NCBI GenBank assembly: GCA_963824495.1
Contig: CAWGPQ010000006.1
Location: forward strand, 32,001 to 96,000
Reading direction: 5' to 3'
Source: an uncultured bacterium
GTDB lineage: Bacteria > Babelota > Babeliae > Babelales > Babelaceae
Length of the DNA stretch: 64,000 nucleotides
In this document: positions 27,600-58,007 of the stretch, one piece after another
Position numbering within the stretch: position 1 is the stretch's first letter
How the letters are laid out: every line of letters begins with the position of its first letter
The notes under the pieces: generated by a model
What the model saw: only the letters and a program-made list of their open reading frames with translations
What the model was told of the DNA's origin: nothing
The model's database searches: none
Translations under genes and position numbers: made by a program

Positions 27600-28033
27600 A
27601 TTACATAATATTAAAAAGAATTGATAAAAATGATTATTGGCCCATCAAGAAAAATAAAATAAGCAATTTATATAATTTGTGGTCACTTTTTAATAGTACC
27701 GCATCACCAGAGATCCTTCTTAAAGAGTGGATACTAGATCCATCACAAGAAGTTTTAAGCACAAATAATTGTTATCTTCGCAAAGAGGGGAACAACGTGG
27801 TTGTGAGTGAATTATGTGGTTCTGATGATGAAAACGATGCTTATGCTATAACAGTACCGAATCAACAACTGTGTGCTTTAGTAGATGAATGGTATAAGCT
27901 ATGCCAAGCAGATGTAGAAAAGATTATCATATGGTCTGTTGGCGATGACTTTACAATTTCTGAATATCTTGAGCCGGAAGAGTTATCCACAAATAATGAC
28001 CCAAGGAAAAATAGCTACTCTAGCATATCGTAA
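27596..28033 (+). CDS. Putative immunity protein 1
   Basis: ATGA overlap with toxin stop; small, acidic; paralog of 28115-28510. Confidence 0.7.
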   Translation: MNYIILKRIDKNDYWPIKKNKISNLYNLWSLFNSTASPEILLKEWILDPSQEVLSTNNCYLRKEGNNVVVSELCGSDDENDAYAITVPNQQLCALVDEWYKLCQADVEKIIIWSVGDDFTISEYLEPEELSTNNDPRKNSYSSIS

Positions 28034-28034
28034 A

Positions 28035-28118
28035 ATGATAAATTTCGTAACAATCTGCAAGGGTTTGCGTATAGGTGAAGTGATTTCAGCATATCCTCTA
28101 ATCAAAAGTGCATTATGA
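28035..28118 (+). pseudogene. Vestigial toxin C-terminal tip (27-aa mini-ORF)
   Basis: MINFVTICKGLRIGEVISAYPLIKSAL* matches toxin end LGEMTSAYPIISLRKL*; ATGA overlap with the next gene. Confidence 0.7.
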
Positions 28119-28510
28119 ATTACAGAATATTAAGAAAGATTGGTAAAAATGATTACTTTCCTATAAATGATATAACAAGCGATGTGGATATATTATGGTT
28201 ACTTTTAAATGGCACACCAACACTTGATCTCTTTCTTAAGGACTGGATAGTAGATCCCCTTCAAGGAGTTTTAAGTACAAATAACTGTCTCCTATGGAAA
28301 GGAGGTGATAAGGTAACCATAAGCTTTTTATATGCTGAAGTTGACCCCGAAGATGATCCTAATGCACTCTTAATAACAAAGCAACAACTTTGCGATTTGG
28401 TAGACCGATGGGATAAGCTCTGTGAAGCAGATGTGGAAAAGATTATTATATGCGGTATTGGTGGCGATTTTACAGTTTCTGAATATCTTGAGCAGGAGCG
28501 ATCACTATGA
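28115..28510 (+). CDS. Putative immunity protein 2 (orphan paralog)
   Basis: Shares MNY.IL..I.KNDY.PI, LK.WI.DP.Q.VLSTNNC.L, QQLC.LVD.W.KLC.ADVEKIII, DFT.SEYLE with 27596-28033. Confidence 0.75.
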   Translation: MNYRILRKIGKNDYFPINDITSDVDILWLLLNGTPTLDLFLKDWIVDPLQGVLSTNNCLLWKGGDKVTISFLYAEVDPEDDPNALLITKQQLCDLVDRWDKLCEADVEKIIICGIGGDFTVSEYLEQERSL

Positions 28511-29155
28511 AGAATTACTGTATTATTAATGGGGGGAAGTAAAAATTGGCGTATTTATAGGTGAAAATTTAAATAACAAAATGACTTCTGAAGAAATTGC
28601 GATTCTTAGGCAACAAGCAGAAGAAGATATATATAAAAAGTACACACTTGAGAATATTACTTCTATACCAAAAATAACAGATTGGCGTGAGGCATATCGC
28701 TCCTTTGGATGTAAACCGTCAGAGTATAGAAGCTCTATAGAAGCATTACTGAGAAGGGTCTTACAGGGCAAACAACTACCTTTGATCAATGCCATTGTTG
28801 ACATTTATAACCTTATTTCTATCAAGCACGTGCTTCCTGCCGGTGGTGGAGATCTTGATAAGATTAAGGGAACAATTAATTTAACAATCTCCGAGGGAAC
28901 AGAGCACTTTGTAATGCTCGGATCCTCGAATTCGGTATCAATAAAATCTGGTGAAGTGATTTATTCTGATGATAGCCAAGTGCTATGTCGTGCTTGGAAT
29001 TATCGGGAATCTGATAAAACTAAAATCACTGAAGATACAAAAATGTTTACCTTCTCCTGGAAGGCCTAAAAAATACATCCGATGAAGAAATAACTGACGC
29101 GCTTTCTGAACTAGCCGCACTAATTTCTTTTACCAACCGTGTTCCGAGTAGTTAA
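28507..29155 (+). pseudogene. B3/B4 (PheT-like) tRNA-editing domain protein with frameshifts at both ends (core ORF 28581-29069)
   Basis: WREAYRSFG.KPS.YRSSIEALLRR, INAIVDIYN, D.DKI.G, CRAWNYRES; one extra A at 29039-29043 restores TKNVYLLLEGL. Confidence 0.8.
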
Positions 29156-39954: not shown

Positions 39955-40671
39955 ATGTTTTTAAGTGATGTAAAAGTTGCGCTTATACTACTTATCGTCT
40001 TATATAGCGTGCAACTGAAGGCACCCGATGGCTTACCCTCTGGCATACCGCCGGAAATGGCGGATTGGCTTGAATTTGGGCTAAGACCTCCGCAAATAGA
40101 AGCCCTCTTGGAAGCTGAACAGAGACGGCTTGAGCGAGCCCTAGCTCGAGAGCAGTTAACCGAGGCTGAGATCGAAGAGTTAGAGAAAGCTGGGGCTTTT
40201 ACCTCACGTTCCACTGCTCAAGATGTAGAAAAAAATCTGCTTGATTTTAATGAGAAATTAAAAAATGACTTCCATAACTACTATCAAGGGCATGTTATTA
40301 CCGTTAAGCAGTTCAATGCTTTGCTGAACCGTATGAAAGAAATTAGAAAATCTGAGGCTGGCAAAACTTTAGAAGAACTTACAAAGTTACGCCAAGATCT
40401 GAATCCTGAATTGAAGATTCTTTATAATGAGGGCCTTAAAATAAGGCAAGACCTTGATGCCCAGATAATTCAAGTTAAAAACATAATTTCTTCTGCTGAA
40501 GAATTCTTTAGAAGTATCCCACCTTATCCTGAATTAGGTGATGTTCGTAGTCAAGCTCGGACGATGCTTGATTATATACGTAATTTTTATAGCTCAGAGT
40601 TTTCTCAAGAAAGGTTAAAAGTAATCAATGGCATACTTGATACTATAACTAAAAGTCTTGAACAATTTTGA
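39955..40671 (+). CDS. Tandem secreted paralog P1
   Basis: Signal peptide-KAPDG; PPE..WL..GL.P.Q; LEAE.RRLERALA; IPPYPELGD. Confidence 0.85.
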   Translation: MFLSDVKVALILLIVLYSVQLKAPDGLPSGIPPEMADWLEFGLRPPQIEALLEAEQRRLERALAREQLTEAEIEELEKAGAFTSRSTAQDVEKNLLDFNEKLKNDFHNYYQGHVITVKQFNALLNRMKEIRKSEAGKTLEELTKLRQDLNPELKILYNEGLKIRQDLDAQIIQVKNIISSAEEFFRSIPPYPELGDVRSQARTMLDYIRNFYSSEFSQERLKVINGILDTITKSLEQF

Positions 40672-40686
40672 AGAATAAGGAGAAAA

Positions 40687-41415
40687 ATGAATAATTACAA
40701 AATATTAAATAGCCCGATAGTAATAACTGTCTTACTTGTTATAGGGCTCAGCGTTAGAATCAAAGCACCGGATGGTTCATTTTCTGGAATCCCACCGGAG
40801 GTGGCAGTATGGCTTCAATCTGGGTTGACGCCTGAGCAACAAGCGACCCTGTTTGAAGCCGAAAAGAGACGACTTGAGCGGGCTCTGGCTCAAGAGCAGT
40901 TAACGGAAGCTGAGATTAAAGAATTAGAACTCAGTGGAGCATTTCAAGCACGTCCTACTGAGCAAGATATAGCTGAAAAACTGTTTGCCTTTTCTGAGCG
41001 CTTAAACAAGGACATCCATGACTATTATGAAGCTAATCGGATTACTGGTGCTCGACTTGCAGACTTGCTGGATTGGATGGTAAATATGGCCGAAGCAGAA
41101 ATGTATAAAATAACTCCGAAAGCACTTAAGGAATTCAGGGAAAGCTTACGTGCTCAATTGCTGGGAGTCTATGAGGAGGCTGGTGCCGTCGGCAAGGAAC
41201 TTGAAATGGAGCGAAAATGGGTTGAAGACATAATGCTTAATGCTCAAGACTTTCTGCACGCTATTCCTCCTTATCCTGAACTTACTGATATTCGTGGTGA
41301 GGCTCAGGAATTAGTTGATCGAGTGCATAAGCTGTATAAGACGGCGTCTTTTGATGCGAGAGCAAAAAGGATCAAAGGGATACAGGAAGATGTAGCACAA
41401 AGGTTTAGTCCCTGA
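40687..41415 (+). CDS. Tandem secreted paralog P2
   Basis: Same motifs; AAGGAG SD. Confidence 0.85.
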   Translation: MNNYKILNSPIVITVLLVIGLSVRIKAPDGSFSGIPPEVAVWLQSGLTPEQQATLFEAEKRRLERALAQEQLTEAEIKELELSGAFQARPTEQDIAEKLFAFSERLNKDIHDYYEANRITGARLADLLDWMVNMAEAEMYKITPKALKEFRESLRAQLLGVYEEAGAVGKELEMERKWVEDIMLNAQDFLHAIPPYPELTDIRGEAQELVDRVHKLYKTASFDARAKRIKGIQEDVAQRFSP

Positions 41416-41432
41416 GGTAAAGGGTAAAAAAT

Positions 41433-42152
41433 ATGAGAATATATGCCACGTTAAAAAATAGCCTTGCACAAGTAACCATCTTACTTAGTATTCTAACGAA
41501 TTTTAACATTAAAGCACCTGATGGTTTATCTTCTTATACTGTACCACCAGAGATAGCAGTTTGGCTGTCAACTGGCTTGAGCCCCGAGCAGCAGGCAGTT
41601 CTCTTAGAAGCTGAAAAGAGACGATTTGAGCGTGCTCTAGCTCAAGAGCAGCTAACTGAGGCTGAGATCAAAGAATTAGAGAAAAGTGGAGCGTTTCAGG
41701 CACGCCCTACCATTCAAGATCTTACTAACGCTTTAGATATTATTAAAAAGTGGGCTTGGCAGGTTCTGAAGAGTCAGCTGCAACTCCTGAATCTCATGAG
41801 TGCTAGAGGAAAAGAGCTTCTATATTTGCTTCAAAAAATAGCGAAATCTAAAGAACTTGAAGAATCTAAAGCAAATCTACAGCGAGAACTTGAACTTATT
41901 TCTAATGAAGCTACTCAGCACATAAAAAACCTTAGCGAAATGTATGAGGAGCGTAAGGCTCTCGTAGCAGAAGTACAAGATTTTATACGTACTATTCCGC
42001 CTTACCCCGAGCTGGCCCAAGTTCGCGATGAAGCTCGCAACATAGAGGAAAGTCTTGCATTAACAATAGGGTCTAAAAAAATTGCTAGCCTTATGCAGGA
42101 TATGAATCGCATACAACATGAAGCAGACGAATTGAGTAGTATATTATTTTGA
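41433..42152 (+). CDS. Tandem secreted paralog P3
   Basis: Same motifs. Confidence 0.85.
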   Translation: MRIYATLKNSLAQVTILLSILTNFNIKAPDGLSSYTVPPEIAVWLSTGLSPEQQAVLLEAEKRRFERALAQEQLTEAEIKELEKSGAFQARPTIQDLTNALDIIKKWAWQVLKSQLQLLNLMSARGKELLYLLQKIAKSKELEESKANLQRELELISNEATQHIKNLSEMYEERKALVAEVQDFIRTIPPYPELAQVRDEARNIEESLALTIGSKKIASLMQDMNRIQHEADELSSILF

Positions 42153-42176
42153 TTTTTGATTAAGAAAGAAAAAGAC

Positions 42177-42914
42177 ATGAGCAAGCAATTCTTTTTAATA
42201 GCAGCAAAAAGCAATCTAGCACAGGTAATTGTTGTACTTATTGTCCTGATAAATTTTAGCATCAAAGCACCTAACGGGGTACCGCGTTCTGGCATACCAC
42301 CAGAAATAGCAGCATGGCTTGCAACTGGCTTGAGCCCCGAGCAACAGGCAGCTCTGCTTGAAGCCGAAAAGAGGCGGCTTGAGCGGGCTATGGCTCAAGC
42401 GCAGTTAACTAAAGCCGAGATTAAAGAATTAGAGAAAACTGGGGCTTTTACAACGCGCCCTACTGTTCAAGATATCGAGCAAAGATGGGCTAATTTTGTT
42501 GAAGAAATGCAACAGAACGTCAATAACTATAATCAAGCTCATACTGCGACTGTTGATCAACTCAACAACTTGTTGGAGCGCTTGATAAAAATTGACAAAG
42601 CAGAGGCTTCCCAAACTCCAGAACAACTTAAGAAGATGCGTCATGACTTACATGATGAATTTCAGCAACTTGATAACCAGGCTCGTGCGGTAAGAGATGA
42701 GCTTGAAGTACAGCTCAGGCAATTTGAAAACATGATCGTTGCTGCGGAAGACTTTTTGCAGGCCATTCCTCCTTACCCTGACTTAGGTGATACACGTCAG
42801 CGTGCTCGGCAGTTACTTAACCAGTTACATGTATTTTATCGTCCAGATACTTTTAATTCAAGAATGAACGCCATCAAAAATGTGCGAAAAACTTTAGCAC
42901 AAAAGCTTGGCTGA
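42177..42914 (+). CDS. Tandem secreted paralog P4
   Basis: Same motifs; ATG 42177 preferred over TTG 42156. Confidence 0.85.
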   Translation: MSKQFFLIAAKSNLAQVIVVLIVLINFSIKAPNGVPRSGIPPEIAAWLATGLSPEQQAALLEAEKRRLERAMAQAQLTKAEIKELEKTGAFTTRPTVQDIEQRWANFVEEMQQNVNNYNQAHTATVDQLNNLLERLIKIDKAEASQTPEQLKKMRHDLHDEFQQLDNQARAVRDELEVQLRQFENMIVAAEDFLQAIPPYPDLGDTRQRARQLLNQLHVFYRPDTFNSRMNAIKNVRKTLAQKLG

Positions 42915-42928
42915 TAGGGGTAACTCAT

Positions 42929-43614
42929 ATGAAGGTGAAGACATATGCTATATGGGTAGTTATTCTGGGTGTTTGTGCTATAAGCTTCGATAGTAAGTGC
43001 CCTAACGGTTTACCTTCCAGTATATCTCATAGTACGCCGCCAGATATAGCTGCATGGCTTGAAACTGGATTGAGACCTGAGCAAAGGGCAGCTTTACTAG
43101 AAGCTGAAGAAAGAAGGCTTTCGCGGGCTCTATTTGGAGAGATACAATTATCCGACGCAGAGATTGAAGCGTTAGAGAAAAGTGGCGCGCTTCCATCAAC
43201 CATTCAAAGAGGTGGTGAGCTAGACCTAACAAGATATGATATTCTGTTCTGGAACTTAGTGAATAGGGTAGATATTTTTCAACAAACTCTTAAAATCTTA
43301 CAGATCAAGTTGTGCTCTTGCTTAAGCAGGTTAAAGAAATTACGCCTGCAGAGGCTCAAGAATTATTAAGAGATAGTACGCGTCGCGTGACAAGGTTTTC
43401 CAACAGGCTCACTATTATTTTTAGCGAGCGCAAGGCGCTTATTGGAGATCTTGAAGAGCTTATATATGAAATGCCTCCTTATCCAGGCCTTGCTGATAGG
43501 CGAGACCAAGTTAGGCAGTTGCTCGGTACGGTTAATAACAGCTATCAGGTTATTGATGAGCTCAAGCGCGATATTGAAGGAGTCCGTGTATTTGTAAACA
43601 AACAACTTATATAG
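42929..43614 (+). pseudogene. Tandem secreted paralog P5, frameshift at ~43292-43295
   Basis: N-terminal motifs in 42929-43369 and MPPYPGL in 43312-43614; one extra A in the A4 run joins them. Confidence 0.8.
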
Positions 43615-43629
43615 AAATAGAAAGAGGAA

Positions 43630-44361
43630 ATGTCTATGTACGAATTTTTAAAAAATAGACCGGCACTGGTAATTATTTTGCTAAGTGCAGCGATAAGTTT
43701 TACAAGTAAAGCCCCCAATGGCTTAGCCTCTCTGCGGCCACCAGAGATAGCAGCCTGGCTTGCAACTGGCTTGAGCCCCGAGCAACAGGCAGCTTTGCTT
43801 GAAGCCGAAAAAAGACGGCTTGAGCAAGCTCTAGCTCAACAACAGTTAACTAAAGCCGAGATTAAAGCATTAGAGAAAACTGGGGCTTTTGCGACACGCC
43901 CTACTGCTCAAGAATTAGAAGAAAGATTAGACGAATTACGTGCTCTATTAAAAGGAGATCTCGATGATTATGGTCAAGCTCGCGATGTTACTCTTCATCA
44001 GTTTCAAAATTTACTGAATCGAATGACAGAGATTATAAAAGCAGAGACTAATAGAACTCCAGGAGAAGTTCAAAAAATTCGCCAAGCATTAAGACCCGAG
44101 TTACAAACTATATACGATCAGGTTTTAAAAATAAAAGATGATTTTGAAGAACAACAAGACCTGCTTGAAACTATAATTTTAGATGCTGAAGAATTTCTAC
44201 AAACAATCCCGCCCTACCCTGAATTAGGTGATGTGCGTGGACGTGCTCGGGAAACGCTTGATAGCATACGTCAACTTTATAATCCAGGGTTTCTCGAGAA
44301 TAAGTTAAAGCACATAAAAATTATACAGGAAATTATCAATAAGATGCTTGAAAATGCTTGA
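43630..44361 (+). CDS. Tandem secreted paralog P6
   Basis: Same motifs; GAGG SD. Confidence 0.85.
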   Translation: MSMYEFLKNRPALVIILLSAAISFTSKAPNGLASLRPPEIAAWLATGLSPEQQAALLEAEKRRLEQALAQQQLTKAEIKALEKTGAFATRPTAQELEERLDELRALLKGDLDDYGQARDVTLHQFQNLLNRMTEIIKAETNRTPGEVQKIRQALRPELQTIYDQVLKIKDDFEEQQDLLETIILDAEEFLQTIPPYPELGDVRGRARETLDSIRQLYNPGFLENKLKHIKIIQEIINKMLENA

Positions 44362-44428
44362 AAAAAATTATTAGAAGACCTGAAGACGAGGCCTCTCTTC
44401 CGAAAACTTTTATGAATTTATTTTTTTA

Positions 44429-44519
44429 AAATATTGCATATTTGATTTATTTCATGATAACCTGGTAAATAGTAAAGTGTATGTTGTCTTTTGCTGTATG
44501 GCAAACTGTGACTATTCTT
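44429..44519 (+). promoter_or_regulatory. Duplicated promoter/leader segment, copy A (upstream of P7)
   Basis: AAATATTGCATATTTGATTTATTTCATGATAACCTGGTAAATAGT..GCTGTATGGCAAACTGTGACTATTCTT, closely similar to 45327-45421; TTGCAT -35 and TG-GATAAC -10-like. Confidence 0.65.
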
Positions 44520-44543
44520 AAGAAGAATAATGGGGGTATAGCG

Positions 44544-45263
44544 ATGTATAAATTTTTAAAAAATAGCCCAATACTGGTAATTATTTTGATAAGTGCAGCA
44601 ATAAGTTTTACAAGTAAAGCACCCGACGGTTTAGCTTCTCTGCGGCCACCAGAAATGGCAGCTTGGCTTGAATTTGGGCTCAGGCCTGCGCAAACAGAAG
44701 CACTGTTAGAAGCTGAAAAGAAACGGCTTGAGCGAGCTCTAGCTGAACAACAGCAGTTATCTGAGGCTGAAATTAAAGAATTAGAGAAAATGGGGGCCTT
44801 TGCGGCACGCCCGACTCTTCAAGAACTAGAAGAAAGGTCAGAGAAATTAAGCGCTCTATTAAAAGGTGCTCTAGATAATTATGAGCAAGCTCATGATGCT
44901 ACGGTTAATCAGCTCCGAGATTTGGTGAATCGAACGGGAAACATTATCAAGCTAGAGGCTCATCGAAGTCCAGAAGAAGTTCAAAAAATTCGCCAAGCAT
45001 TAAGACCCGAGTTACAAACTCTATATGATCAGGCTTTGAAGATAAAAGATGATCTTGAAAAACAACAAGAGCTACTTAAAACTATACTTGCAGATGCTGA
45101 AGAATTTTTACAGGCAATCCCACCTTACCCTGAATTAGGTGATATTCGTGGTGAAGCTCGAGAAATGCTCGATGGCATGCATAAATTTTATGATCAAGCA
45201 TCTCTCGATAAGGCGAAGTTTATACAAATTATAGAGAAAATTATCAATAAGGTATCGGGCTAA
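44544..45263 (+). CDS. Tandem secreted paralog P7
   Basis: Same motifs; ATG 44544 (MYKFLKN aligns with P6 MYEFLKN). Confidence 0.85.
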   Translation: MYKFLKNSPILVIILISAAISFTSKAPDGLASLRPPEMAAWLEFGLRPAQTEALLEAEKKRLERALAEQQQLSEAEIKELEKMGAFAARPTLQELEERSEKLSALLKGALDNYEQAHDATVNQLRDLVNRTGNIIKLEAHRSPEEVQKIRQALRPELQTLYDQALKIKDDLEKQQELLKTILADAEEFLQAIPPYPELGDIRGEAREMLDGMHKFYDQASLDKAKFIQIIEKIINKVSG

Positions 45264-45632: not shown

Positions 45633-45657
45633 AGGAGAGCTTTTAAGCTCTCCTTTC
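45633..45657. terminator. Hairpin between convergent transcription units
   Basis: AGGAGAGC-TTTTAA-GCTCTCCT followed by TT. Confidence 0.6.
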
Positions 45658-45677: not shown

Positions 45678-48600
45678 TTACCAACCGCCTTCATTGTCGC
45701 TTGCGTTTACTTGGCGTTGGGAAATACTTTGTGCCGGAGGTGGTGGAGGTGGAACATTAATTATAGTTGATGGTGGTGCTTGAGGAGTGCTTATATTTTG
45801 CTCATTTGTCGATATGGGCGGTGGAGCAAGGGGAGCAGAAGGTTTTGTTGCTGCAGGATGTTGGGTGGCTTGCTGTGTTTTTTGATAAGCTGCTTGGGCT
45901 GTTTCAATCGCATCAACTAACTCTTTTCTTAATGGGCCATAGACTTGTTGATACGTACTGAGCTGGTCCGTATAGCCACTTTCGATAGGTTGAGTGCTGG
46001 CTTTGCTGTATAAAAGACCACTTACGAGACTTACCATACCCGTAATAGATGGATTATAAGGCACACCGGTACCGGGAGAGCGTGCTATGGTGTTATCTGG
46101 GTTAAGGGGAGCCATAAGAACATAGTCTTTGGGTACTGCTGATGTGGTTGTTGTATAGATAAAATTGCCCTGTTGTATATCTTCTATACCTGTTGCTGAG
46201 AGGGTAAACGAATCGAATTTATAAGGGCCCAGGAGGGCTTGGGCATGGGTAGTTTGTGCAGTGTTTATTTGATGAATATTAGCAGTACTTATGGTTGGAC
46301 GCGCATTTTTATAGATATTCCATACATTACCGAGATGTAAGGGCAATTGGGTGCCCGATGCATCAAATACATCCCCAGATATAAGGCTTATGAGGCCCGT
46401 TGGTGAGGCTGAGGGACTTGCTCCAAGATCGGTAACGGTAGGTGGGGTAGTTTGATTGACATTACCAAATATAACGTAATCCTGAGGTAATTTGCCAGCC
46501 ATTTGCTGAGCGAGAGGCGTAGCACGGGTTGTATAGATATAGTTTTCTTTAAGAAGTTCATTGGTATCAAGGGCAGTGGGGGAAAATGATCCAAACTCGG
46601 GATGTTGCATCGAGCTAAAGGTTGCCTGTGCTGTTTTTTCACGGTTTACTTCTAATGCTCCTTGATAGGGCGGGTATACGTTATCAATTACCTGATAGGT
46701 TTTTTGGTCATTTGGTGTTAATATCTCGCCTTCAAGTGATGCTCCCGTAAAAATAATGCCCATAGTTTTCTGAGACGTTGGCGTAATTGATAGGGTTACT
46801 GGCGGCGGCAGGGGATCTCCCTCGCGCCATACTTGTACCGTTAGGTTGCGAGCGTTAAGCGTGGCTCGTATGTGATACCAGGTGCCTATATTAAAAGGAG
46901 GTACGGTAAAATTATTAGGTATCCAACCCTGAGTAGCTTGATACGTATCACTTTCATGTTCATATATACCTAATGAGACAGGGAGCGTAGCTGATTCTTT
47001 TTTAAACACAATCATTTTTGCTAAATGCGCACGATCAGGATCTGCTTGTCGTGTTGTCATAAGGGCAGCTTGGTTAAGGGGATTGCCACCAAGATATAAC
47101 CCAGCATAAAAAGACTGTAAAAGATAGATTGGTTTAAATCGCAGTTCAACCGATAGAGGTTGATCGATATTCTGATCGAGATCTTTAGTACTATTTTGAA
47201 GAAACCAGAACCGTGAAGCTTGCCCTCCAGGCACCGTGACACTTGCTGGACTGACAGCAATCTCTTGAGATATCTTTTGACGTGAAGGTGCGTATATGGC
47301 AAATCCTTGCGAAGGGTTAAGGTTAAGCCAGCCGGTACGGTAACCATACAGTGAGCCGATATCCCCCGGTGTCATCGTAACAGGTTGCACAGCACCGACA
47401 GGCTGTTGAGCATAGGGTTGAGGTGTCAAAAGAGCTGCCTGATACGAGCCTAAGAGAGAGCTTTTTTGAGAAAGAAGACCATTGAATGTGCTATTTAAGA
47501 AATTTTCATAAAAGCCGAGCATGCGCTCACGATTGGATAGTTCTGCCTCAAATTTTTTATTAAGCTCAGTACTTATAGCAGTTTGTTGATAGGTTGTTAT
47601 TGCTTCTTTATTCTGAGTCCAAACTCTAAAATTTTGGACATATTCATGTGTTTCTTGTTTAAGCTGCTCTACCTGTATATCTTCTTGAGCACCGCTTGTG
47701 ATCATAAGACTACCAAAACCGAGTGCTAAGACAAGCCCGGGTATAAGTTCTACCCCAGTGCCTCCCGTAGCAACCGTAAGCCCTACAATAAGCCCTGTAG
47801 TGATAACTTGAGCGATAAGGCGGCGGTGAGTCCCTATTTGAGTTTGTGCTTGAGCATAATAGGTAGCAAAGTTTAAACCCGAGCCACCGAGTTTATAAGC
47901 AACATAATCTATTGACGCTTCTACACCGGCACCGATATCGATAACAAGATCGGTAAGTAACTTAATTAAATAGCCACAGGTTTGAATAAGGCTTGTAATA
48001 GCTTCAGCTGCTTTGGCACCAATAAACGTAATTTCTGATAACACCGAGCTTAGAATACTGAGCCCAAGTTGTCGAAAGCCAGGCCCCAATGTTTGGGGAC
48101 CGCTTAATCCTAATACAACGTTACTTATGAGCGATATTGCTTGAATGCTCAGCCTACATTCATTTTGAAAGACTAATCCACCAATCTCAAAAGGGGCAGC
48201 TATAACATCGGCTACCGTGTCAATTAATGAGCTCCACAGCATGTTGACGTCAGTGCTGAGTTTGGGATCATGCAAAATATTCGTGCCAATAGCCTGCATA
48301 ACGAGGTAAAGACCTCCATAGCCATAAGGCGTGAGAATTACTGCGTTCGTAATAATAGTTTTAATAGCAGCTTGAAAGCTTGAAAAATCAGCACGTGCTG
48401 CGTCTTGATATGCTTGAGCTAACTGTTGAGCAGTCTGGGGTGGTAGGCTTTGAATGCGTTGTGCAAGACCAGAAGAGTAATAGAGCGTAAGTGTTTCATC
48501 TTTGGTTATTTCTGCTACATCTTGAGCACTTGCATAGAGAGCTTCCCCTGTTTGCTGGATTTTTCGCCAAACGTCAGACCCTGTTGCTTTTACCCAATTT

Positions 48601-49913
48601 AAAGTAGCTTGTTGTACTACAGCAGTGGCAGGAGCAGTAGTAAGAGCAGTGGACTGTGCTGCTGGTAATACCGTTTGTTGAACCGTTTGTACTTGACCCG
48701 TGCTTGCTTGAGGTAGTTGACGTAGTGTTGTAGCACTATCACGTATATCGAGAAGATAATTGTAATCGTTAGGTGTATAAGGTAAAAAAGAGGGTGATGG
48801 TTGTTGCTTGGCCACACGTAAGATGCGCATGGTGGCATCAAGTGCATTGCCTTGAAAAAGATCAGCCGTGAGCGCTTGAAGCGTAAGGAGCATACTTAAG
48901 CAGGTTACTTGCTCTGCTGTAGGTGATGGTACAGGGATATTTTTAAAAGTTATAGTTTTGTTATCGGCATCAAGCTGAAAGGGGCTTGTGGCACCTCGAG
49001 AGGTGATGTCGCTCAATGTTGCGGCGGTGGTATAAAAAGGGGTAGCAGTAAAAGCAGCAATAGCCTTAAGAAGTTGGTTTGCGTTGCTTATGCCCCGCCA
49101 ATCGGTGCATTGGGCAAGCATACGATTGCGTGTGTGCTCACTTACAATTAACGAAGCTTGAGTAATTTGCGAGGATAATCGTAATTGCGTAAAATCTGGA
49201 TTAAAGTAGGCAACTTCAATAGTGGGCAAATACTTAAAAAGAGAGCGTTCGTTCTCGTAGCGTGCTACTAAGAGTCCTTGATCGAGATCAATAGTTTTTT
49301 TAATAATAAACTTTGCGTAATTCTGCCAAAAAGAAGAATTTACTATATCAGACGTAGTTACCGTAAGAGCTGTCCAAAACGAAGTATCGATAAGAGTGTC
49401 CCAGGATTTGTGTTCTTGAGTGTAGGAAAGTCTTAGTGCGCTATCAAGAAGGTCCCAGCTTGATGCACTTGGAAGAGGGAGTTGAGCCTGAGCTTGTGAT
49501 GCTACAAGTTTGCCCCAGTCATATGTTACTACACCGTTAGTAATCGTGGCGAGTAATGCCGGGAATGCTTTTCCTGACTGTTGAGCAAGCGTGATGAGTT
49601 GTGCTGCGCGCTCACGCTTAACGACATATTCTAAATAAAAATAAAAGTAATTGATATACGTTAGAAGCTGTGGCTGAACGTTAAGTCCCGAGGGGCCAAA
49701 GAGTGACGTTATCGCTTCAGTATGTATGGATGTAATTGATTGTCCTGGTGCTGGAGTTAACAGTTTTTGTGCTACGTGACTGATAGCAGCAGCCTGTTGT
49801 TTGTTTTGTTGCTCAGCAAGAGCAATTTCTGTTGTAAGTTGTTCCTGCGTATATGCATAATCTGCTAGGGCTGCGAGAGTAAAAAGAACTATAATTTTTA
49901 TATATGGTATCAT
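45678..49913 (-). CDS. Large secreted hypothetical protein (1411 aa): central hydrophobic helices, coiled coil, ConA-like beta-sandwich, two C-terminal repeats, Pro-rich tail
   Basis: Signal peptide; IAQVITTGLIVGLTVATGGTG..LVLALGFGSL; FNIGTWYHIRATL..LTVQVW; two YTT..DYV..SL.SG repeats. Confidence 0.8.
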   Translation of the reverse strand: MIPYIKIIVLFTLAALADYAYTQEQLTTEIALAEQQNKQQAAAISHVAQKLLTPAPGQSITSIHTEAITSLFGPSGLNVQPQLLTYINYFYFYLEYVVKRERAAQLITLAQQSGKAFPALLATITNGVVTYDWGKLVASQAQAQLPLPSASSWDLLDSALRLSYTQEHKSWDTLIDTSFWTALTVTTSDIVNSSFWQNYAKFIIKKTIDLDQGLLVARYENERSLFKYLPTIEVAYFNPDFTQLRLSSQITQASLIVSEHTRNRMLAQCTDWRGISNANQLLKAIAAFTATPFYTTAATLSDITSRGATSPFQLDADNKTITFKNIPVPSPTAEQVTCLSMLLTLQALTADLFQGNALDATMRILRVAKQQPSPSFLPYTPNDYNYLLDIRDSATTLRQLPQASTGQVQTVQQTVLPAAQSTALTTAPATAVVQQATLNWVKATGSDVWRKIQQTGEALYASAQDVAEITKDETLTLYYSSGLAQRIQSLPPQTAQQLAQAYQDAARADFSSFQAAIKTIITNAVILTPYGYGGLYLVMQAIGTNILHDPKLSTDVNMLWSSLIDTVADVIAAPFEIGGLVFQNECRLSIQAISLISNVVLGLSGPQTLGPGFRQLGLSILSSVLSEITFIGAKAAEAITSLIQTCGYLIKLLTDLVIDIGAGVEASIDYVAYKLGGSGLNFATYYAQAQTQIGTHRRLIAQVITTGLIVGLTVATGGTGVELIPGLVLALGFGSLMITSGAQEDIQVEQLKQETHEYVQNFRVWTQNKEAITTYQQTAISTELNKKFEAELSNRERMLGFYENFLNSTFNGLLSQKSSLLGSYQAALLTPQPYAQQPVGAVQPVTMTPGDIGSLYGYRTGWLNLNPSQGFAIYAPSRQKISQEIAVSPASVTVPGGQASRFWFLQNSTKDLDQNIDQPLSVELRFKPIYLLQSFYAGLYLGGNPLNQAALMTTRQADPDRAHLAKMIVFKKESATLPVSLGIYEHESDTYQATQGWIPNNFTVPPFNIGTWYHIRATLNARNLTVQVWREGDPLPPPVTLSITPTSQKTMGIIFTGASLEGEILTPNDQKTYQVIDNVYPPYQGALEVNREKTAQATFSSMQHPEFGSFSPTALDTNELLKENYIYTTRATPLAQQMAGKLPQDYVIFGNVNQTTPPTVTDLGASPSASPTGLISLISGDVFDASGTQLPLHLGNVWNIYKNARPTISTANIHQINTAQTTHAQALLGPYKFDSFTLSATGIEDIQQGNFIYTTTTSAVPKDYVLMAPLNPDNTIARSPGTGVPYNPSITGMVSLVSGLLYSKASTQPIESGYTDQLSTYQQVYGPLRKELVDAIETAQAAYQKTQQATQHPAATKPSAPLAPPPISTNEQNISTPQAPPSTIINVPPPPPPAQSISQRQVNASDNEGGW

Positions 49914-49921
49914 GGCTGTGC

Positions 49922-51730
49922 TCAGGGACTAGCTAATGATTTTTGGAAATTTTCACGTTGCTGCTCTGTATAGGTTAATGCTGCCGGCTGGATAATCTTA
50001 AACGACGCTTGGCAACCAGGTGCCATAAATCCTATGCCATGATACCAAAAGAGCATCTGGCTTTGATGAGGGTCCATAGTAGTCACTTGTGTGGTATAGA
50101 GCTGTTGCAGCTCATTGTCTATACGCTGAGCAAAAATAATTCCTATGGTCAGCAGATCATTAGTAATGGTAATGACAAATGACAAGGGATCTTTTCCAAG
50201 AGCCTGTAGTGTTTTTGGGTTAAGCATATAAAGTGCTTGCGTGGTGGGGTTTATAATAGTTGCTAATGCTGGTGTTACGGTCACGGTACCCTGTGCAGTT
50301 GTTATAGAACTCTGGCCAAATTTCAGCTCAACGCTTCTGTTGTTTTCAGTTCCAGAACCATACAAGCCTAAGAGTCGGTATTGGTACATGCGCTCAGAGC
50401 TTCCTGAAAGCCAACGTGCTTTATTGAAGAGTATTCCAGCAAAAAAAGATGGATTGGCGCTAATCAATGTAAGCTCTATTTCTATAGTATACGGATGAGT
50501 GCCTGTAATAAATTCAGTAAATATCGAATTTTGCATACCACGATAAAGAGCATCGGCAGTTGTGGCAGCTTCCCAGGGGATACGTTTACGTTGCACAAAG
50601 CTACCTGTTGCCGCATCATATTCCCAATCGCCTGGACCTTGATAAAGATTATACCACGTAAAAGGTGACGCTGGTGTCAGCATAGACGATGCTTTGAAGA
50701 CTTGATCATATATAACAGGATTGCTTACATAGGTGCTTTGAGGCAGATCAAGATTAATAGAACGAGAAAGATACGTAATTTCTTGATTAAGTTGTGTAGT
50801 TGCTGCGGTTATCTGTGAACTGAGATACTGAAGCTTTTGTAAATAGGCCGTGCTTTGCGTAGTAATAAGCACTTTGCTGCTTTGGGCAAGTTGAGTTTGG
50901 AATGTGCTAAAGCTTTGTTGGAGTGATATCAGATCTTGCTTAATTTGATTATACTCTTTTTTGTCTTCTGCACTAAAAAGTGACTCTGCAAAGCTTTCGC
51001 CGGTAAATACTGACATTTGAAGTGCTAGGTCTACCAGTGTTTCTAAGAATTGGATACGAGGGCGCTGAGTTGCCAGCTGAGCGTAACTCAGCACATGTTG
51101 TTGCTCTACTGGGTCACGCCATGTTGCCATAAGTTCAGGTAATGGTGTGATAGTTTGGGCGATAAAAAATGTACGTGCTTGTGCGTAATCAGTAAGTATA
51201 TCTGATTGCTCAATCTCATAATACTCGAGGAGAAGATGTGCTAAAGCAGATACTCTGTGAGCACGTGAAGCTGGAAGCTGAATCTTTTGTAAAAAGCTCA
51301 AGTGTCGTTGAGCAGTACGAGCACAAAATTGTCTTAGATATTTTCTATAATGGTCAAGTAGTTCTTTCTTATAAACGTGCTCTAAACTTTGGAGGGTGTG
51401 CTGCTCCGTTTTGCGCTCCAACTCATGTGTCATAGCAGCGTGCTTTTGATTAATCGCACGGTAAACAGCTTGAGCAGCTCGACACTGTTCTTGGTCAGAG
51501 CTTGTCAAAAGAAGATATATAAGCTCTTGTATTGTTGTAAGGCTAGTTGCTGATACATGAAGGCCTGATTGCTCAAAGATTTTTATTGTTTGGGCTTGAG
51601 CTTGAAGTTCAAGTTTTTTATCATATTTTTTATCATATTTTTTATCATGAGCTGGCGCCCCCCGAAGATCAATAATAATGGTTATTATAACCATAACACA
51701 AGGGGATATATACGTTATAGCGTAGTTCAT
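49922..51730 (-). CDS. Secreted hypothetical protein (602 aa): coiled coil plus beta-rich C-terminal domain
   Basis: Hydrophobic N-terminus; Gln-rich heptads; GDWEYD, FFAGILFN, GIGF. Confidence 0.8.
   Translation of the reverse strand: MNYAITYISPCVMVIITIIIDLRGAPAHDKKYDKKYDKKLELQAQAQTIKIFEQSGLHVSATSLTTIQELIYLLLTSSDQEQCRAAQAVYRAINQKHAAMTHELERKTEQHTLQSLEHVYKKELLDHYRKYLRQFCARTAQRHLSFLQKIQLPASRAHRVSALAHLLLEYYEIEQSDILTDYAQARTFFIAQTITPLPELMATWRDPVEQQHVLSYAQLATQRPRIQFLETLVDLALQMSVFTGESFAESLFSAEDKKEYNQIKQDLISLQQSFSTFQTQLAQSSKVLITTQSTAYLQKLQYLSSQITAATTQLNQEITYLSRSINLDLPQSTYVSNPVIYDQVFKASSMLTPASPFTWYNLYQGPGDWEYDAATGSFVQRKRIPWEAATTADALYRGMQNSIFTEFITGTHPYTIEIELTLISANPSFFAGILFNKARWLSGSSERMYQYRLLGLYGSGTENNRSVELKFGQSSITTAQGTVTVTPALATIINPTTQALYMLNPKTLQALGKDPLSFVITITNDLLTIGIIFAQRIDNELQQLYTTQVTTMDPHQSQMLFWYHGIGFMAPGCQASFKIIQPAALTYTEQQRENFQKSLASP
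51614..51649 (+). repeat. In-frame 12-bp tandem repeat x3 (DKKY)
   Basis: TTTTTTATCATA x2 + TTTTTTATCATG. Confidence 0.9.
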
Positions 51731-53340
51731 GGTGTAGTACTAGGTTGGTTTTCAAGTTGCTCAAGTGCTTGTTGTTCTTGAAATTGATCGGGCTCCAATT
51801 GTGGCTGACTAGCAGCTAAAGGCTGTACGGGCTGTTGCTGAAATAGATTGTTATCTTGAACAAATTCTTGCTGTGCTTGCTTAATTAAAGCAGTATAATC
51901 ACTGCATTGTTGAGAGCTTAGTGTGCCAATTTTGCTTCCCGTAACTTGAGTAATAAGATTTTCAAGACAAGGATCTAGGATGCCAAGACCTAGTATTTGA
52001 GTAAAATCTCCTAAGCATGCTCGTAAGATTTGTAGTATGCCTGCTCGTGTATTGAGCCAATCAGGTTGCACGGCAACCTCTTGCTCATAGAGATTGTTAT
52101 GAGTAGGAATATTAACGCAGAGCTTTACAGCTTGTGCTTGATTTTGTGTTATGGAGCCCTGAGCATCTTTAAAATAAGCGATAGGGTAGCCTAGTGAAGC
52201 ATGTTGTTTAGTTACCGCTTGTGTGCCTGCTTGAGCAAGTTTGATAAGATGGGCAGGCCAGCCAATTGATCGTACCCCCTTTGGCAACTCCGTGGCCGCT
52301 TGAAGTATACTATTCAGTGCCTGTAAGCTTTCTGGCGTATAAGAAAAGAGTGATGGGGTAACCCGCTTGTAGCCTCGTAATTGACTAACGGCAGTTTGTA
52401 TGTCTTCCAGGGTCTTTGGTGGCTGTTGTGCTAAAGCTTGCGATCGCTTAATGCTCGGATTGTTTGCCAGTACCCGAGCAACAGATTGTGCATAGGTGGC
52501 GAACTGGCTTTGACCAGGAATTTGACTAGCACTATCAAGATAGCTTGTATACGCAGAAAAGAAAGTAAGATATGCCTGAAGTGCAGAACGATATGTTGTC
52601 TGAGCTGCTTGAACTACTTTATGTATAGTTTGTTGCTCTGGAGTAGCTGGTGTGTCACCCGAGAAAAATTGTTCTTCTTGGTTTTCAAGCAAGAAATTAA
52701 TATCAGCGCCATAATCGTGGCTTATAAGAATATTACCGGTAGAAAGTGTTAGCTGAGGTGGTAATAGAGGAAAATAGGTTTGAATTGCTTGATGTAATTG
52801 TGCTTGAACAATGGTTAAAAGGTGCTGAAGTATATATGCTTTTTTATTAAGAGCATACATGGCTTCAGTTTCTAAATGGGCCAGAGGCGTATCGGTATGT
52901 GTCAGATTAAATGTGGTGTAAATGCTTACCAAGTAATAAAAAAGATCATGGAGAGCAAAAAACTGTACTTTACGCACATAAGCAACTGCTTGAGGGGCTT
53001 TTTGTAGGCTTGCCAAGAGTCCATTGAAACTTGCGGCAAGGGCAGCATTATCGAAAAGCTCGCTTCCCGATGGATGATTGACATAGAGATGGGAGTTCAG
53101 TGTAAAGCTTACGGTAGCTCGTTGAGTTCCTAAATTCCAAGCAAAAGGCATACGGTTTTTATTATGAGCATTAGGCTTTATGAGTCGTGAGCCATCGGGG
53201 GTTACATAGCGTACTGCATATTGCGCAGGCGTTAAGTTGAGCGCTGGGGCTACAGATGCTTGCTGGCTTACTGCTTGGCCTATGATAAGATGTGTGATAA
53301 GACTGAAACTAACTAAGCTGCTCCTTTGTACCCACCGCAT
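51727..53340 (-). CDS. Secreted hypothetical protein (537 aa), first gene of the three-gene operon
   Basis: Signal peptide, AAGGAA SD; ATGA overlap with the next gene. Confidence 0.8.
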   Translation of the reverse strand: MRWVQRSSLVSFSLITHLIIGQAVSQQASVAPALNLTPAQYAVRYVTPDGSRLIKPNAHNKNRMPFAWNLGTQRATVSFTLNSHLYVNHPSGSELFDNAALAASFNGLLASLQKAPQAVAYVRKVQFFALHDLFYYLVSIYTTFNLTHTDTPLAHLETEAMYALNKKAYILQHLLTIVQAQLHQAIQTYFPLLPPQLTLSTGNILISHDYGADINFLLENQEEQFFSGDTPATPEQQTIHKVVQAAQTTYRSALQAYLTFFSAYTSYLDSASQIPGQSQFATYAQSVARVLANNPSIKRSQALAQQPPKTLEDIQTAVSQLRGYKRVTPSLFSYTPESLQALNSILQAATELPKGVRSIGWPAHLIKLAQAGTQAVTKQHASLGYPIAYFKDAQGSITQNQAQAVKLCVNIPTHNNLYEQEVAVQPDWLNTRAGILQILRACLGDFTQILGLGILDPCLENLITQVTGSKIGTLSSQQCSDYTALIKQAQQEFVQDNNLFQQQPVQPLAASQPQLEPDQFQEQQALEQLENQPSTTP

Positions 53341-53531: not shown

Positions 53532-54749
53532 ATGAGAGTGCGCATGCTTTTTCGTTCTAAATTACTTTTGGCAATCCCTCTTTTCGGCATTTTTCTTTGG
53601 TTTGGTCTTACGGCATACACCTTCTTTTTTGATACTGATAGTCCTGACCTGGCTATTCTGGGAATCGGGGATAATGGATGTTATGCAGGTGAGGTTCAGT
53701 GTAAAGTGACAGGCAGTGATAACTATAAAGTTGCCTCTATATCGATCTCGCTTGATGACACACCATTGGTAACTCGTTATAAAATTAATCACAGCACTTT
53801 TGAGCACGCATTTCCTCTTGTTACTCATGCACTTGCGCATGGCAACCACATTCTTAAAATAAGTGCGCGCGATGCCTCATGGCGTAAAAATGAAAGAGTA
53901 ACGACGTTACATTTTGCTGTCGATAACGTTCCTTTACAAGCTGCCTTTGTTAAAGCTGACGGTGACAGTAAAGTTTTTCAAGGCCGTACGGTGCATCTTC
54001 AATTTCAGGTTAATAAAGATATAGAAAAAGCTGAAGTTAAAGTTCTCTCAACGACTTACAGGGCGGTACCAGAAGCACCTGACTCGCTTATCTATGAGTG
54101 CTTTATTCCTGTAAAATGCGATGAGATACCTAATGAGTATCCTGTAACCATCGACATTGTTGATCGTGTTGGGACACGGGTAACACTTGATACTAAACTC
54201 CATGTAGTTATGTATCCCTTCAAGAAGCAAAGCTTAGTGTTAAATAAAGAAAAAATTAAAGCAGAAAATGAGCTCGGTTTACCTGAGCGAGCGTTGGAGC
54301 AGGCTATACAGGAAGCAACACAGAAATCACCCCCTACTAAATTATGGCAAGGGTATTTTTATGTGCCTCTTGACATGAAAGGAATATCAACTGAATTCGG
54401 TACTATACGCACAACGCAAGAACGGGGAAGGTACCCACATAATGCGCTTGATCTTATAGCAGCACCTCATAGTGTTGTTTGGGCTCCACAAAATGGCATA
54501 ATTGTTATTAAAGAGCGTTACGCTCATAGTGGCCTTACTATCGGTATCGATCACGGTTTGGGTGTCATTACTCTATTCTTCCATCTAGAGAGTTTTGCTG
54601 ATATTAATGTGGGTGATCTGGTTAAAAAGGGCAATCCTGTAGGAAATATGGGCAGCACAGGATATGCAAGTGGCGATCACTTGCATTGGGAGATGCGTGT
54701 TAATACACTACAAGTAGATCCTATGCAATGGACTAAGCAGGACTTTTAA
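53532..54749 (+). CDS. M23-family metallopeptidase (peptidoglycan hydrolase) with N-terminal TM and Ig-like domains
   Basis: HNALD (HxxxD), GDLVKKG..G.MGSTG, HLH. Confidence 0.92.
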   Translation: MRVRMLFRSKLLLAIPLFGIFLWFGLTAYTFFFDTDSPDLAILGIGDNGCYAGEVQCKVTGSDNYKVASISISLDDTPLVTRYKINHSTFEHAFPLVTHALAHGNHILKISARDASWRKNERVTTLHFAVDNVPLQAAFVKADGDSKVFQGRTVHLQFQVNKDIEKAEVKVLSTTYRAVPEAPDSLIYECFIPVKCDEIPNEYPVTIDIVDRVGTRVTLDTKLHVVMYPFKKQSLVLNKEKIKAENELGLPERALEQAIQEATQKSPPTKLWQGYFYVPLDMKGISTEFGTIRTTQERGRYPHNALDLIAAPHSVVWAPQNGIIVIKERYAHSGLTIGIDHGLGVITLFFHLESFADINVGDLVKKGNPVGNMGSTGYASGDHLHWEMRVNTLQVDPMQWTKQDF

Positions 54750-54766
54750 TACAGGATTTTTGATAT

Positions 54767-55345
54767 ATGAATTATTTTATACCACGAGGTAGCAAGACGT
54801 ATTATCGCCTTATACAATGGTCTGCGGTTGCACGCTATGGCCTGACACTCTGTATCGTGGTATGTCTTATCGTTAGTTGGCGGTTTTTGTGCTACGGGAC
54901 AGTCCAGCAGTATATCGGTACCTATCAAAAAAATAATAATGAAACCGAACTTCTTAAAAAACTAACAGATACTAAAAAAGCAGCATGTGAACGTGAGCTT
55001 CAGCACTATCAGAGCACTATTAATGAACTTATGCGTGAGCTGAATCAGCTTCATAGTCAATCGGCTTCTAGTAAGCTTGATTTTTTAAAAAGTATAGTAT
55101 CGCTTATTGCTACGGCAGGGCTAAAGCTCGAGTATTATGGTATTGAGCAAGAAGATACAAAGAAAACACATATACGGCTATCGCTACGTATAGCATGTAC
55201 GGGAAGCTTTGAGGCCATCATGACGTTTTTTGCCGCCTTGACTAAAAGCACCTGCTTACTTGCCTGGCGCCAGTATGAATTGACACGTGTGGATGATACG
55301 CTTGTCGCCTGTGCTGGCCTTCTTGATGTTTTTGTACTTAAGTAA
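54767..55345 (+). CDS. PilO/GspM-like protein
   Basis: N-terminal TM, coiled coil, then ferredoxin-like pattern TGSFEAIMTFF. Confidence 0.55.
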   Translation: MNYFIPRGSKTYYRLIQWSAVARYGLTLCIVVCLIVSWRFLCYGTVQQYIGTYQKNNNETELLKKLTDTKKAACERELQHYQSTINELMRELNQLHSQSASSKLDFLKSIVSLIATAGLKLEYYGIEQEDTKKTHIRLSLRIACTGSFEAIMTFFAALTKSTCLLAWRQYELTRVDDTLVACAGLLDVFVLK

Positions 55346-55358
55346 GAGAGGTGCCTCT

Positions 55359-55592
55359 ATGCTCTATGTTCCTCTTATACTTTTCTGCTCATGTGCTTTT
55401 TTTGAGGTTGCAGCTTTGCGTAACCCCTTTTGCTATAATTACGATCATTACGATTATGATGCTGTACTTGCCACGGGCAGGATACTTGATGCAGATCTCT
55501 GCATTAATCTTGTACGTACAGGAAATAAAACCAAAGTTATTACAGAAAAAAAGGCCCTTCAACTTAAAAAAGCTGAAGGGTTAGGGGGGTGA
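55359..55592 (+). CDS. Small exported protein, PilP-like RNPF motif
   Basis: GAGG SD, MLYVPLILFCSC..LRNPF; follows the PilO-like gene. Confidence 0.4.
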   Translation: MLYVPLILFCSCAFFEVAALRNPFCYNYDHYDYDAVLATGRILDADLCINLVRTGNKTKVITEKKALQLKKAEGLGG

Positions 55593-57398: not shown

Positions 57399-58007
57399 TC
57401 ACTCACTATGCGATGTTCTGTTGTGCTCGAGCAAGAGCTCCGCTATATCTGACTGTTCAATACTTAAAGCTAAAGCACGAGCATCTTGGTTATTTCTATT
57501 TCTTACATCTGTTCGAGCCCCTGGGCGGAGCAGAAACTCAACAGCAGTTGCTTGATCAAAACGAGCTGCAATCATCAACGCTGTATTACCATGTTCATCT
57601 TCAGCGTTAATATTTATCCCTTCAGCAAGCAGAGCTTGTAGCGCTTCGATATTGCCCTCTGACGCTCGTATAATAAAATTACGTTCTTTGGCTTGTTTCT
57701 CTTGTTTCTCTTGGTTTAGGCATGACTCAGGGTCTTGTGACTGCTCAAGGGCATGTTGCTTGGTAACTTTGGCGAGTGCTTGAGCTTGTAAGCTAGCAAC
57801 AGAATAGAACGTAGTAATACCAGTATTATTATTATTGTTATTATCAGCATTCATAGCGTGCAAAGTGCTACCAGAATATAATACTATGCATGTAAAAGAA
57901 GAAAGAATATTTTTAACCACTATCCTAACGCCCTTGGGTTGGCTGTAATTAACCAGGTTTAATTGTAAGCACATAATGTATAGTACGTTTTTTAGTAGTA
58001 ATATCAA
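57399..58007 (-). CDS. Ankyrin-repeat protein with signal peptide and poly-Asn tract (true start probably ~57920)
   Basis: ASEGNIEALQALLAEGININAEDEHGNTALMIAA..VEFLL..GA; LHAMNADNNNNNN. Confidence 0.88.
   Translation of the reverse strand: MILLLKNVLYIMCLQLNLVNYSQPKGVRIVVKNILSSFTCIVLYSGSTLHAMNADNNNNNNTGITTFYSVASLQAQALAKVTKQHALEQSQDPESCLNQEKQEKQAKERNFIIRASEGNIEALQALLAEGININAEDEHGNTALMIAARFDQATAVEFLLRPGARTDVRNRNNQDARALALSIEQSDIAELLLEHNRTSHSE

Follow-up and report, generated by a model that had tools for sequence, protein, structure and literature searches.

A four-gene system of secreted proteins in Babelota, predicted to form a membrane-inserting or adhesion complex

A three-gene operon and an unlinked fourth gene

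We analysed a 64-kb stretch of DNA (hereafter, the window; positions 32,001 to 96,000 of contig CAWGPQ010000006.1, GenBank assembly GCA_963824495.1) from an uncultured bacterium of the Babelaceae, phylum Babelota, and focused on three adjacent genes on its minus strand, here called A, B and C. Judged by their conservation across the phylum, these genes and a fourth, D, which lies outside the window, are a real, unannotated four-gene system of Babelota. Residue positions in A, B and C refer to the proteins of this genome, and nucleotide coordinates refer to the window unless a locus is named.

51727..53340, minus strand: gene A, open reading frame (ORF) of 537 amino acids; leader followed by a compact domain, largely of helices plus a small β-sheet
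49922..51730, minus strand: gene B, ORF of 602 amino acids; leader, N-terminal region, helices and a β domain
45678..49913, minus strand: gene C, ORF of 1,411 amino acids with a signal peptide
L084 7804-13766 (contig G000:C11, outside the window), minus strand: gene D, which matches the C profile and carries a C-type C-terminal repeat

A preliminary description of this DNA, made from its letters alone, had proposed a coupled operon of three genes of these sizes, and both the reading frames and the junctions were confirmed: A and B overlap by 4 bp (ATGA), and an 8-bp spacer separates B from C. The GC content of the three genes is the same as that of the remainder of the window. The description had also placed N-terminal leaders on all three proteins, which holds for most homologues under a crude signal-peptide rule (A 40/44, B 29/42, C 35/45), satisfied by 1 of 53 UvrC and ClpB controls and by 1–6% of internal windows. 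In the window itself, the leader of A is weakly hydrophobic and that of B lacks a basic N-region. By the same rule D has a leader in 17 of 19 homologues, and the leaders on A–D therefore imply export by Sec.

Gene D came to light in profile searches of 261 Babelota genomes, in which the C profile also matched an ORF of about 1,800–2,700 amino acids elsewhere in the same genomes. The protein (about 2,000 amino acids) has an acidic, Ala/Gly-rich N-terminus of 183–558 residues, one hydrophobic helix and two to four copies of the C-terminal repeat of C (hhalign probability 99.3, E = 2e-20). In this assembly D is represented by two ORFs on contig C11. We rejected the possibility of a pseudogene: short-read contigs from 3/3 runs (two studies) depart from the assembly by a single-base indel at the split, which is most likely an assembly error.

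Distribution and descent

In this survey A was found in 48/261 genomes, B in 49/261 and D, searched through its non-repeat region, in 50/261. The C profile matched 55/261 genomes, 50 of them at E < 1e-100, a count that leaves out four weak matches to the low-complexity start and one match that is D. All four genes are present in 47 of the 52 genomes that have any of them, despite D being unlinked; the exceptions are G121 (64% complete), G069 (81%), G111 (78%), G076 (90%, with D alone) and G023 (94%, with a C fragment on a 2.5-kb contig). The neighbours of D are mostly housekeeping genes, such as those for thioredoxin reductase and an aminopeptidase. By its co-occurrence, D is a newly recognized, co-inherited partner that synteny alone would miss. 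The distribution is uneven among families: B is present in 14/14 genomes of f5, 14/16 of f12, 8/10 of f10, 5/5 of f15 and 2/4 of f2, in 3/40 of f1 besides this genome, and in none of f19 (0/80), f11 (0/35) and f6 (0/12).

The order A>B>C is contiguous and the same in 44 of 53 mapped loci, that is, in every locus that shows all three genes; the other nine are interrupted by contig ends. This co-distribution among the genomes searched, with a constant gene order, bears out the preliminary treatment of the three genes as a unit. The operon occupies a recognizable slot next to a conserved neighbour.

53532..54749, plus strand: M23 peptidase gene (Pfam match), head-to-head with A; marks the operon slot

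The M23 gene and A are immediate head-to-head neighbours in 42/45 loci in which that side is visible, and uvrC is next along in 31 operon loci. The M23 gene also occurs in 56/61 relatives, operon or not; being near-universal in the order, it is therefore not specific to the A–D system. None of 20 operon-negative loci retains any remnant of A, B or C in the slot, and uvrC lies within two ORFs of the M23 gene in 12 of them (adjacent in 7). The system is therefore dispensable and behaves as one unit. In trees built from 35 loci, each of A, B and C has 23 well-supported splits (of 24–27) in common with the M23 gene, in whose tree operon-negative and operon-positive genomes are interleaved. From these single-gene trees, rooted at the midpoint and without a clade test, we infer vertical descent with repeated loss of the whole module. 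As a side observation, one contig (L026 and L027, G007:C1) carries the M23-A-B region twice, in opposite orientations and with several frameshifts, in a bin with 7% contamination.

Domain organization of the proteins

The following regions were recognized in C and B, all on the minus strand.

48684..49766: C50-410, N-terminal domain, conserved among homologues
47844..48596: C440-690, acidic Gly/Ala-rich amphipathic helices (low-confidence model, periodicity)
47688..47825: C697-742, hydrophobic hairpin of two helices joined by a Gly turn (sequence, conserved in homologues)
47424..47681: C745-830, long helices up to the β domain (model)
46704..47366: C850-1070, ConA-like lectin/CBM66-type β-sandwich (structure matches)
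45864..46601: C1105-1350, two copies of an α/β repeat of about 120 amino acids (model; repeat common to D)
50756..51049: B228-325, weakly hydrophobic helix, then an amphipathic coiled-coil-like helix (periodicity)
49961..50698: B345-590, β domain, inferred to be ConA-like (hhalign against C: probability 89.8, E = 1.8e-6, 277 columns)

Residues 430–1360 of C were folded with 46 sequences, giving a mean predicted local distance difference test (pLDDT) score of 70, which is low in the helical half and mostly 80–97 from about residue 810 onward. The preliminary description had seen a long hydrophobic Gly/Ala-rich region here; the composition stands, but the roughly 250 residues of C440–690 are acidic (Asp plus Glu 10–14%) and amphipathic, with a period of 3.6 that 0/200 shuffles match, and the hairpin at C697–742 alone is uncharged (2.5%). 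The hairpin itself, which had also been described, is conserved in homologues. Its turn reads TGG in 24 and TDG in 8 of 46, its second helix often contains Pro, Gln or Asn, and 13/46 homologues carry a large charged insert of about 100–500 residues at its tip. The glycine turn may resemble that of the IpaB/SipB hairpin. Farther along, the coiled coil that had been proposed in C is modelled as long helices at C745–830, but its periodicity is not significant (141/200 shuffles reach it).

The β-sandwich predicted around a W-Y-H-I motif could be located with more precision: the motif (C1012–1015) lies inside a ConA-like fold whose nearest relatives are the thrombospondin C-terminal domain, CBM66 and L-type lectins. 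For C860–1069 the best matches are 2rhp (Z = 12.9, root-mean-square deviation (r.m.s.d.) 3.5, 173 residues aligned) and the CBM66 domain 4b1m (Z = 12.4, r.m.s.d. 3.5, 160 aligned). Sequence identity to these folds is 10–15%, and in C, unlike in those proteins, the domain is one part of a large helical protein. The jelly-roll fold of the model places C860–1069 in the ConA-like lectin/glucanase superfamily, with glycan binding predicted. Viral matches include several LamG/ConA-like proteins, and an ESM Atlas search with C430–1080 gave leads only (0.79–0.80).

The core of B aligns with the long helix and β domain of C at an hhalign probability of 75.5, rising to 89.8 with deeper alignments, and is probably a shorter paralogue of C; the N-termini of the two proteins show a 33-column resemblance only (probability 12). 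Of the coiled coil and β-rich domain previously assigned to B, the former agrees with an amphipathic periodicity of 3.65 at B255–325 (reached by 0/200 shuffles) and the latter is deduced from the C profile. The N-terminal region is missing in some homologues, many B proteins of family f5 starting almost at the helix, and B homologues of family f12 carry inserts near the helix. An exhaustive HMMER search with B against 1.84 billion representatives returned 165 matches at E ≤ 0.001; the 150 listed are apparently the family itself or fragments, and the names found among the 30 representatives looked up were 'hypothetical protein', some of them from Dependentiae or Babeliaceae.

Protein A has a confidently predicted, mostly helical fold with a small β-sheet (pLDDT 86.6, predicted TM-score 0.85) and no hydrophobic helix. 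Its model of 513 residues found no Foldseek match below E = 0.3 and a best VIA match of Z = 6.7, a search that a domain-level match could have escaped at this length; an ESM Atlas search gave no usable match. Homologues carry invariant polar residues. Paralogy of A with B or C is excluded by profile comparison (probability < 1), and an apparent natural A-B fusion in L058 proved to be an artefact in which a run of N joins the two genes. Neither the fold of A nor the C/D repeat has a listed family. In family f12 (L025, L060, L072-L081) A has inserts of several hundred residues, reaching about 1,170–1,390 amino acids in total, and B reaches 780–1,050, with the A and B cores still conserved.

On a crude insertion scale the hydrophobic helices have medians of 1.7 and 3.8 in C, 6.1 in B and 3.2 in D, compared with −1.5 to 2.4 for the best helices of five membrane proteins, which suggests that those of C, B and D are marginal candidates for membrane insertion.

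Comparison with known families and systems

No family match was found for A, B or C in NCBIfam, Pfam, PHROGs or the sequences of the PDB, and no relative is known for D either, in line with the preliminary suggestion of undescribed families, and the database searches returned no enzyme or S-layer family that would have spoken for another function. Pfam searches of the homologues (43 of A, 46 of B, 46 of C) gave scattered single-member matches only, and neither Pfam nor the PDB sequences yielded a ClyA/HBL-type match for these homologues. A limited literature search found no paper describing A, B, C or D.

Several known systems share parts of this design. The tripartite α-pore-forming toxins of the ClyA family (AhlABC, SmhABC, NheABC, Hbl) also have three genes per operon and are described as combining a hairpin subunit, a subunit with a short hydrophobic helix and one with neither (PMC6602965, PMC7979752). 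In contrast, A, B and C have no sequence match to them, the A model reaches Hbl-B only at a Foldseek E of 0.68 (TM-score 0.12–0.16), and in Babelota B and C have ConA-like heads, C is far larger and the fourth partner is unlinked. Type III secretion translocators (IpaB/SipB, the SseC family and the minor translocator) place a hydrophobic hairpin on a helical stalk, according to PMC4746235, as C697–742 does. Unlike these, most A–C homologues have Sec-type leaders, and 260 of the 261 genomes have no injectisome export gene. The lone FHIPEP match above cut-off is the contaminant described below. A search of this genome for SseC gave no match, and the controls were likewise without one.

Clostridial neurotoxins and NTNH resemble the system in architecture only: they too are encoded side by side as paralogues, and in each a ConA-like domain comes after a helical region. 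Chains of botulinum neurotoxin and NTNH rank high for C in Foldseek (E about 1e-5), but the alignments have an r.m.s.d. of 27–40 Å and a TM-score of about 0.1, none is among the VIA top 50, and the HExxH zinc-protease motif is not conserved (1–2 of 45–50 sequences per family). GGxGxD, the repeat motif of RTX proteins, occurs in 0/160 sequences. On the best reading, and by analogy, A–D would work like ClyA-family toxins or a type III translocon; neither sequence matches nor the export route shows them to be members of either.

Neighbouring genes and secretion systems

Beyond the operon, a pilO-like gene and a small ORF come after the M23 gene (53532-55592) and make up with it a conserved envelope/pilus cluster, which a secretin joins at L022 12765-16913 and in several other genomes.

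45633..45654, minus strand: terminator-like stem-loop, 9-bp stem with a weak T tail, directly 3′ of C

Terminator-like stem-loops are not enriched over shuffled sequence, and promoters likewise show no excess over shuffles.

Seven tandem secreted paralogues of about 240 amino acids (39955-45263; 37–69% identical, one split across two frames) share invariant KAPxG..PPE and IPPYP motifs and fill the slot between C and uvrC. The idea that the operon works with this convergent array was not borne out: the family has strong matches in this genome alone (1/261, plus one match at E = 6e-4) and lies beside 0/52 other operon loci. By this distribution, the array is a recent expansion specific to this genome and not a conserved partner.

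Elsewhere in the window, a leucine-rich-repeat protein (9750-11246), an insertion sequence (IS)-type integrase (14136-15026) and an ankyrin protein (57399-58007) are typical of protist parasites. A 695-residue protein whose C-terminal part is a bacterial EndoU nuclease domain, together with the three small genes that come after it (25512-29069), looks like a polymorphic toxin with its immunity genes.

The genome carries GspC, GspD and PilM/GspL-like genes of type II secretion, a system reported for all seven TM6 genomes in PMC4776705. A type III system in this genome was considered and rejected. The FHIPEP copy lies in the contig end at about 173600-190653 of G000:C11 (L107). This end is alphaproteobacterial DNA of 59–67% GC, fused to DNA of about 41% GC; it holds FliI-, FliJ- and FlhA-like genes, a response regulator, IS elements in repeated copies and many frameshifts, and its likeness to a type III system is the product of a chimeric assembly.

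Discussion

In this work, we find that A–D are best read as a predicted multi-subunit membrane-inserting or adhesion complex. This is broadly what the preliminary description had put forward: co-conservation, synteny, the ConA fold, the hairpin and the undescribed families all stood, and the partnership with the array fell. We lend about even credence to a narrower form, in which A–D make up a complex that Sec exports, that targets glycans and that is predicted to insert into the membranes of a host. A multi-component complex of this kind matches the combination of lectin head, long stalk and hydrophobic tip, distributed over paralogues that are unequal in hydrophobicity and disappear as a set. 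The design has described precedents, in that IpaB and colicins carry a hydrophobic hairpin on a helical stalk (PMC4746235) and tripartite toxins divide membrane roles among subunits (PMC7979752). Babelota isolates are reported to infect protists (PMC12172432), and C. destructans has moved out of the food vacuole into the cytoplasm by 3 h and seems to release vesicles (PMC6561590). This transit gives a membrane-inserting complex a job, and breach of the food vacuole would be the most likely one for the secreted proteins.

Under this mechanism, Sec would deliver A–D to the periplasm, where the helices would be too weakly hydrophobic to stop; their marginal hydrophobicity suggests passage through Sec and later insertion, on a crude scale on which helix 1 of C overlaps the controls. 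The type II secretion system, or outer-membrane vesicles, would then export the proteins from the bacterium, docking on the host membrane would be through the ConA domains in B and C together with the repeats of C and D, and the hairpin and amphipathic helices of C, with the single helices of B and D, would insert and oligomerize. Protein A, lacking a hydrophobic helix, would act as a scaffold, chaperone or trigger.

Several observations weigh against insertion into host membranes. The part of C that matters most for it is unreliably modelled, with pLDDT below 50 over most of C430–777, and helix 1 of C falls inside the control range of true transmembrane helices. ConA folds are found also in enzymes and structural proteins. 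The sequence and fold searches linked none of A, B and C to a pore-forming family, and the SseC profile (PF04888) reached a single C core of 46, weakly (E = 0.001). The system is missing from about 80% of the genomes searched, in a phylum thought to be parasitic throughout, and is hence not a universal entry route. Furthermore, the counted genomes are related by kinship and not independent, so that the co-occurrence tally overstates the support.

The main alternative, itself unlikely, is a surface adhesin or invasin, with the hairpin anchored in the bacterium's own outer membrane or in a pilus-like structure of type II or type IV. The host would then be chosen by the ConA domains together with the repeats, and its membrane would stay unpierced. 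The ConA fold of C, the large and repeat-rich D and the patchy distribution, which fits host range, agree with this, as does an operon facing the M23 gene and then a pilO-like gene (14 loci), with a secretin in L022; however, the M23 neighbour is present regardless of the operon, a lipobox occurs in 1 of 45–50 sequences per family, A, B and D have no conserved aromatic C-terminus, and 250 amphipathic-helix residues plus a hairpin exceed what an anchor needs. Clearly less probable is an inner-membrane-anchored periplasmic machine for envelope remodelling or as a transport scaffold, in which C, an ordinary membrane protein, would cross the inner membrane twice and expose a variable loop to the cytoplasm, partnered in the periplasm by A, B and D. 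It would seat the hairpin-tip inserts easily in the cytoplasm, and it suits both helix 1 of C and the constant position next to a peptidoglycan peptidase, but the second hairpin helix, with its polar or Pro residues and its median of 3.8, and the even weaker helices of B and D speak against it, and most genomes lack the system with nothing replacing it in the slot. We consider it very unlikely that the infectious form uses A–D as a structural layer or particle, a periplasmic or surface coat of paralogous helical-stalk subunits: paralogous subunits with common repeats (B/C, C/D) and the dark periplasmic material described in C. destructans particles (PMC6561590) would suit it, but there is no match to S-layer or phage structural families beyond one PHROGs tail-fibre match (E = 6e-4, on a low-complexity insert), and the hairpin is left unexplained. 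Finally, it is scarcely credible that these are effectors or glycan-active enzymes, secreted and acting separately and united by nothing but an operon, even though ConA folds include GH16/PL7-type enzymes and A combines its invariant polar residues with a weak DH-domain likeness (Z about 5.5), because four genes at two loci are lost jointly, the top fold matches of C are non-catalytic modules and those of A are at background level.

Returning to host-membrane insertion, a bolder version, which we regard as unlikely, is that A–D are a needle-free translocon, exported by Sec and type II secretion and ancestral to much of Babeliales. B, C and D would self-assemble on the host vacuole through their lectin heads, insertion would carry variable acidic segments across (the hairpin-tip insert of C, the pre-helix insert of B and the 180–560-residue N-terminus of D), and through the pore the bacterium, or its numerous effectors with signal peptides, would reach the cytosol of the protist. 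On this version, A and the repeat common to C and D may also represent folds not seen before.

The Babelota, like the Chlamydiota, are described as parasitic throughout the phylum (PMC12172432), and secreted proteins are reported to make up 44% of the coding sequences of C. destructans (PMC6561590). The genomes searched nevertheless have no type III export gene. A–D are four specific, co-inherited and unannotated candidates, and which families carry or lack them predicts contrasts in lifestyle or host range. If the translocon reading is true, they would be the first candidate host-entry machine for Babelota.

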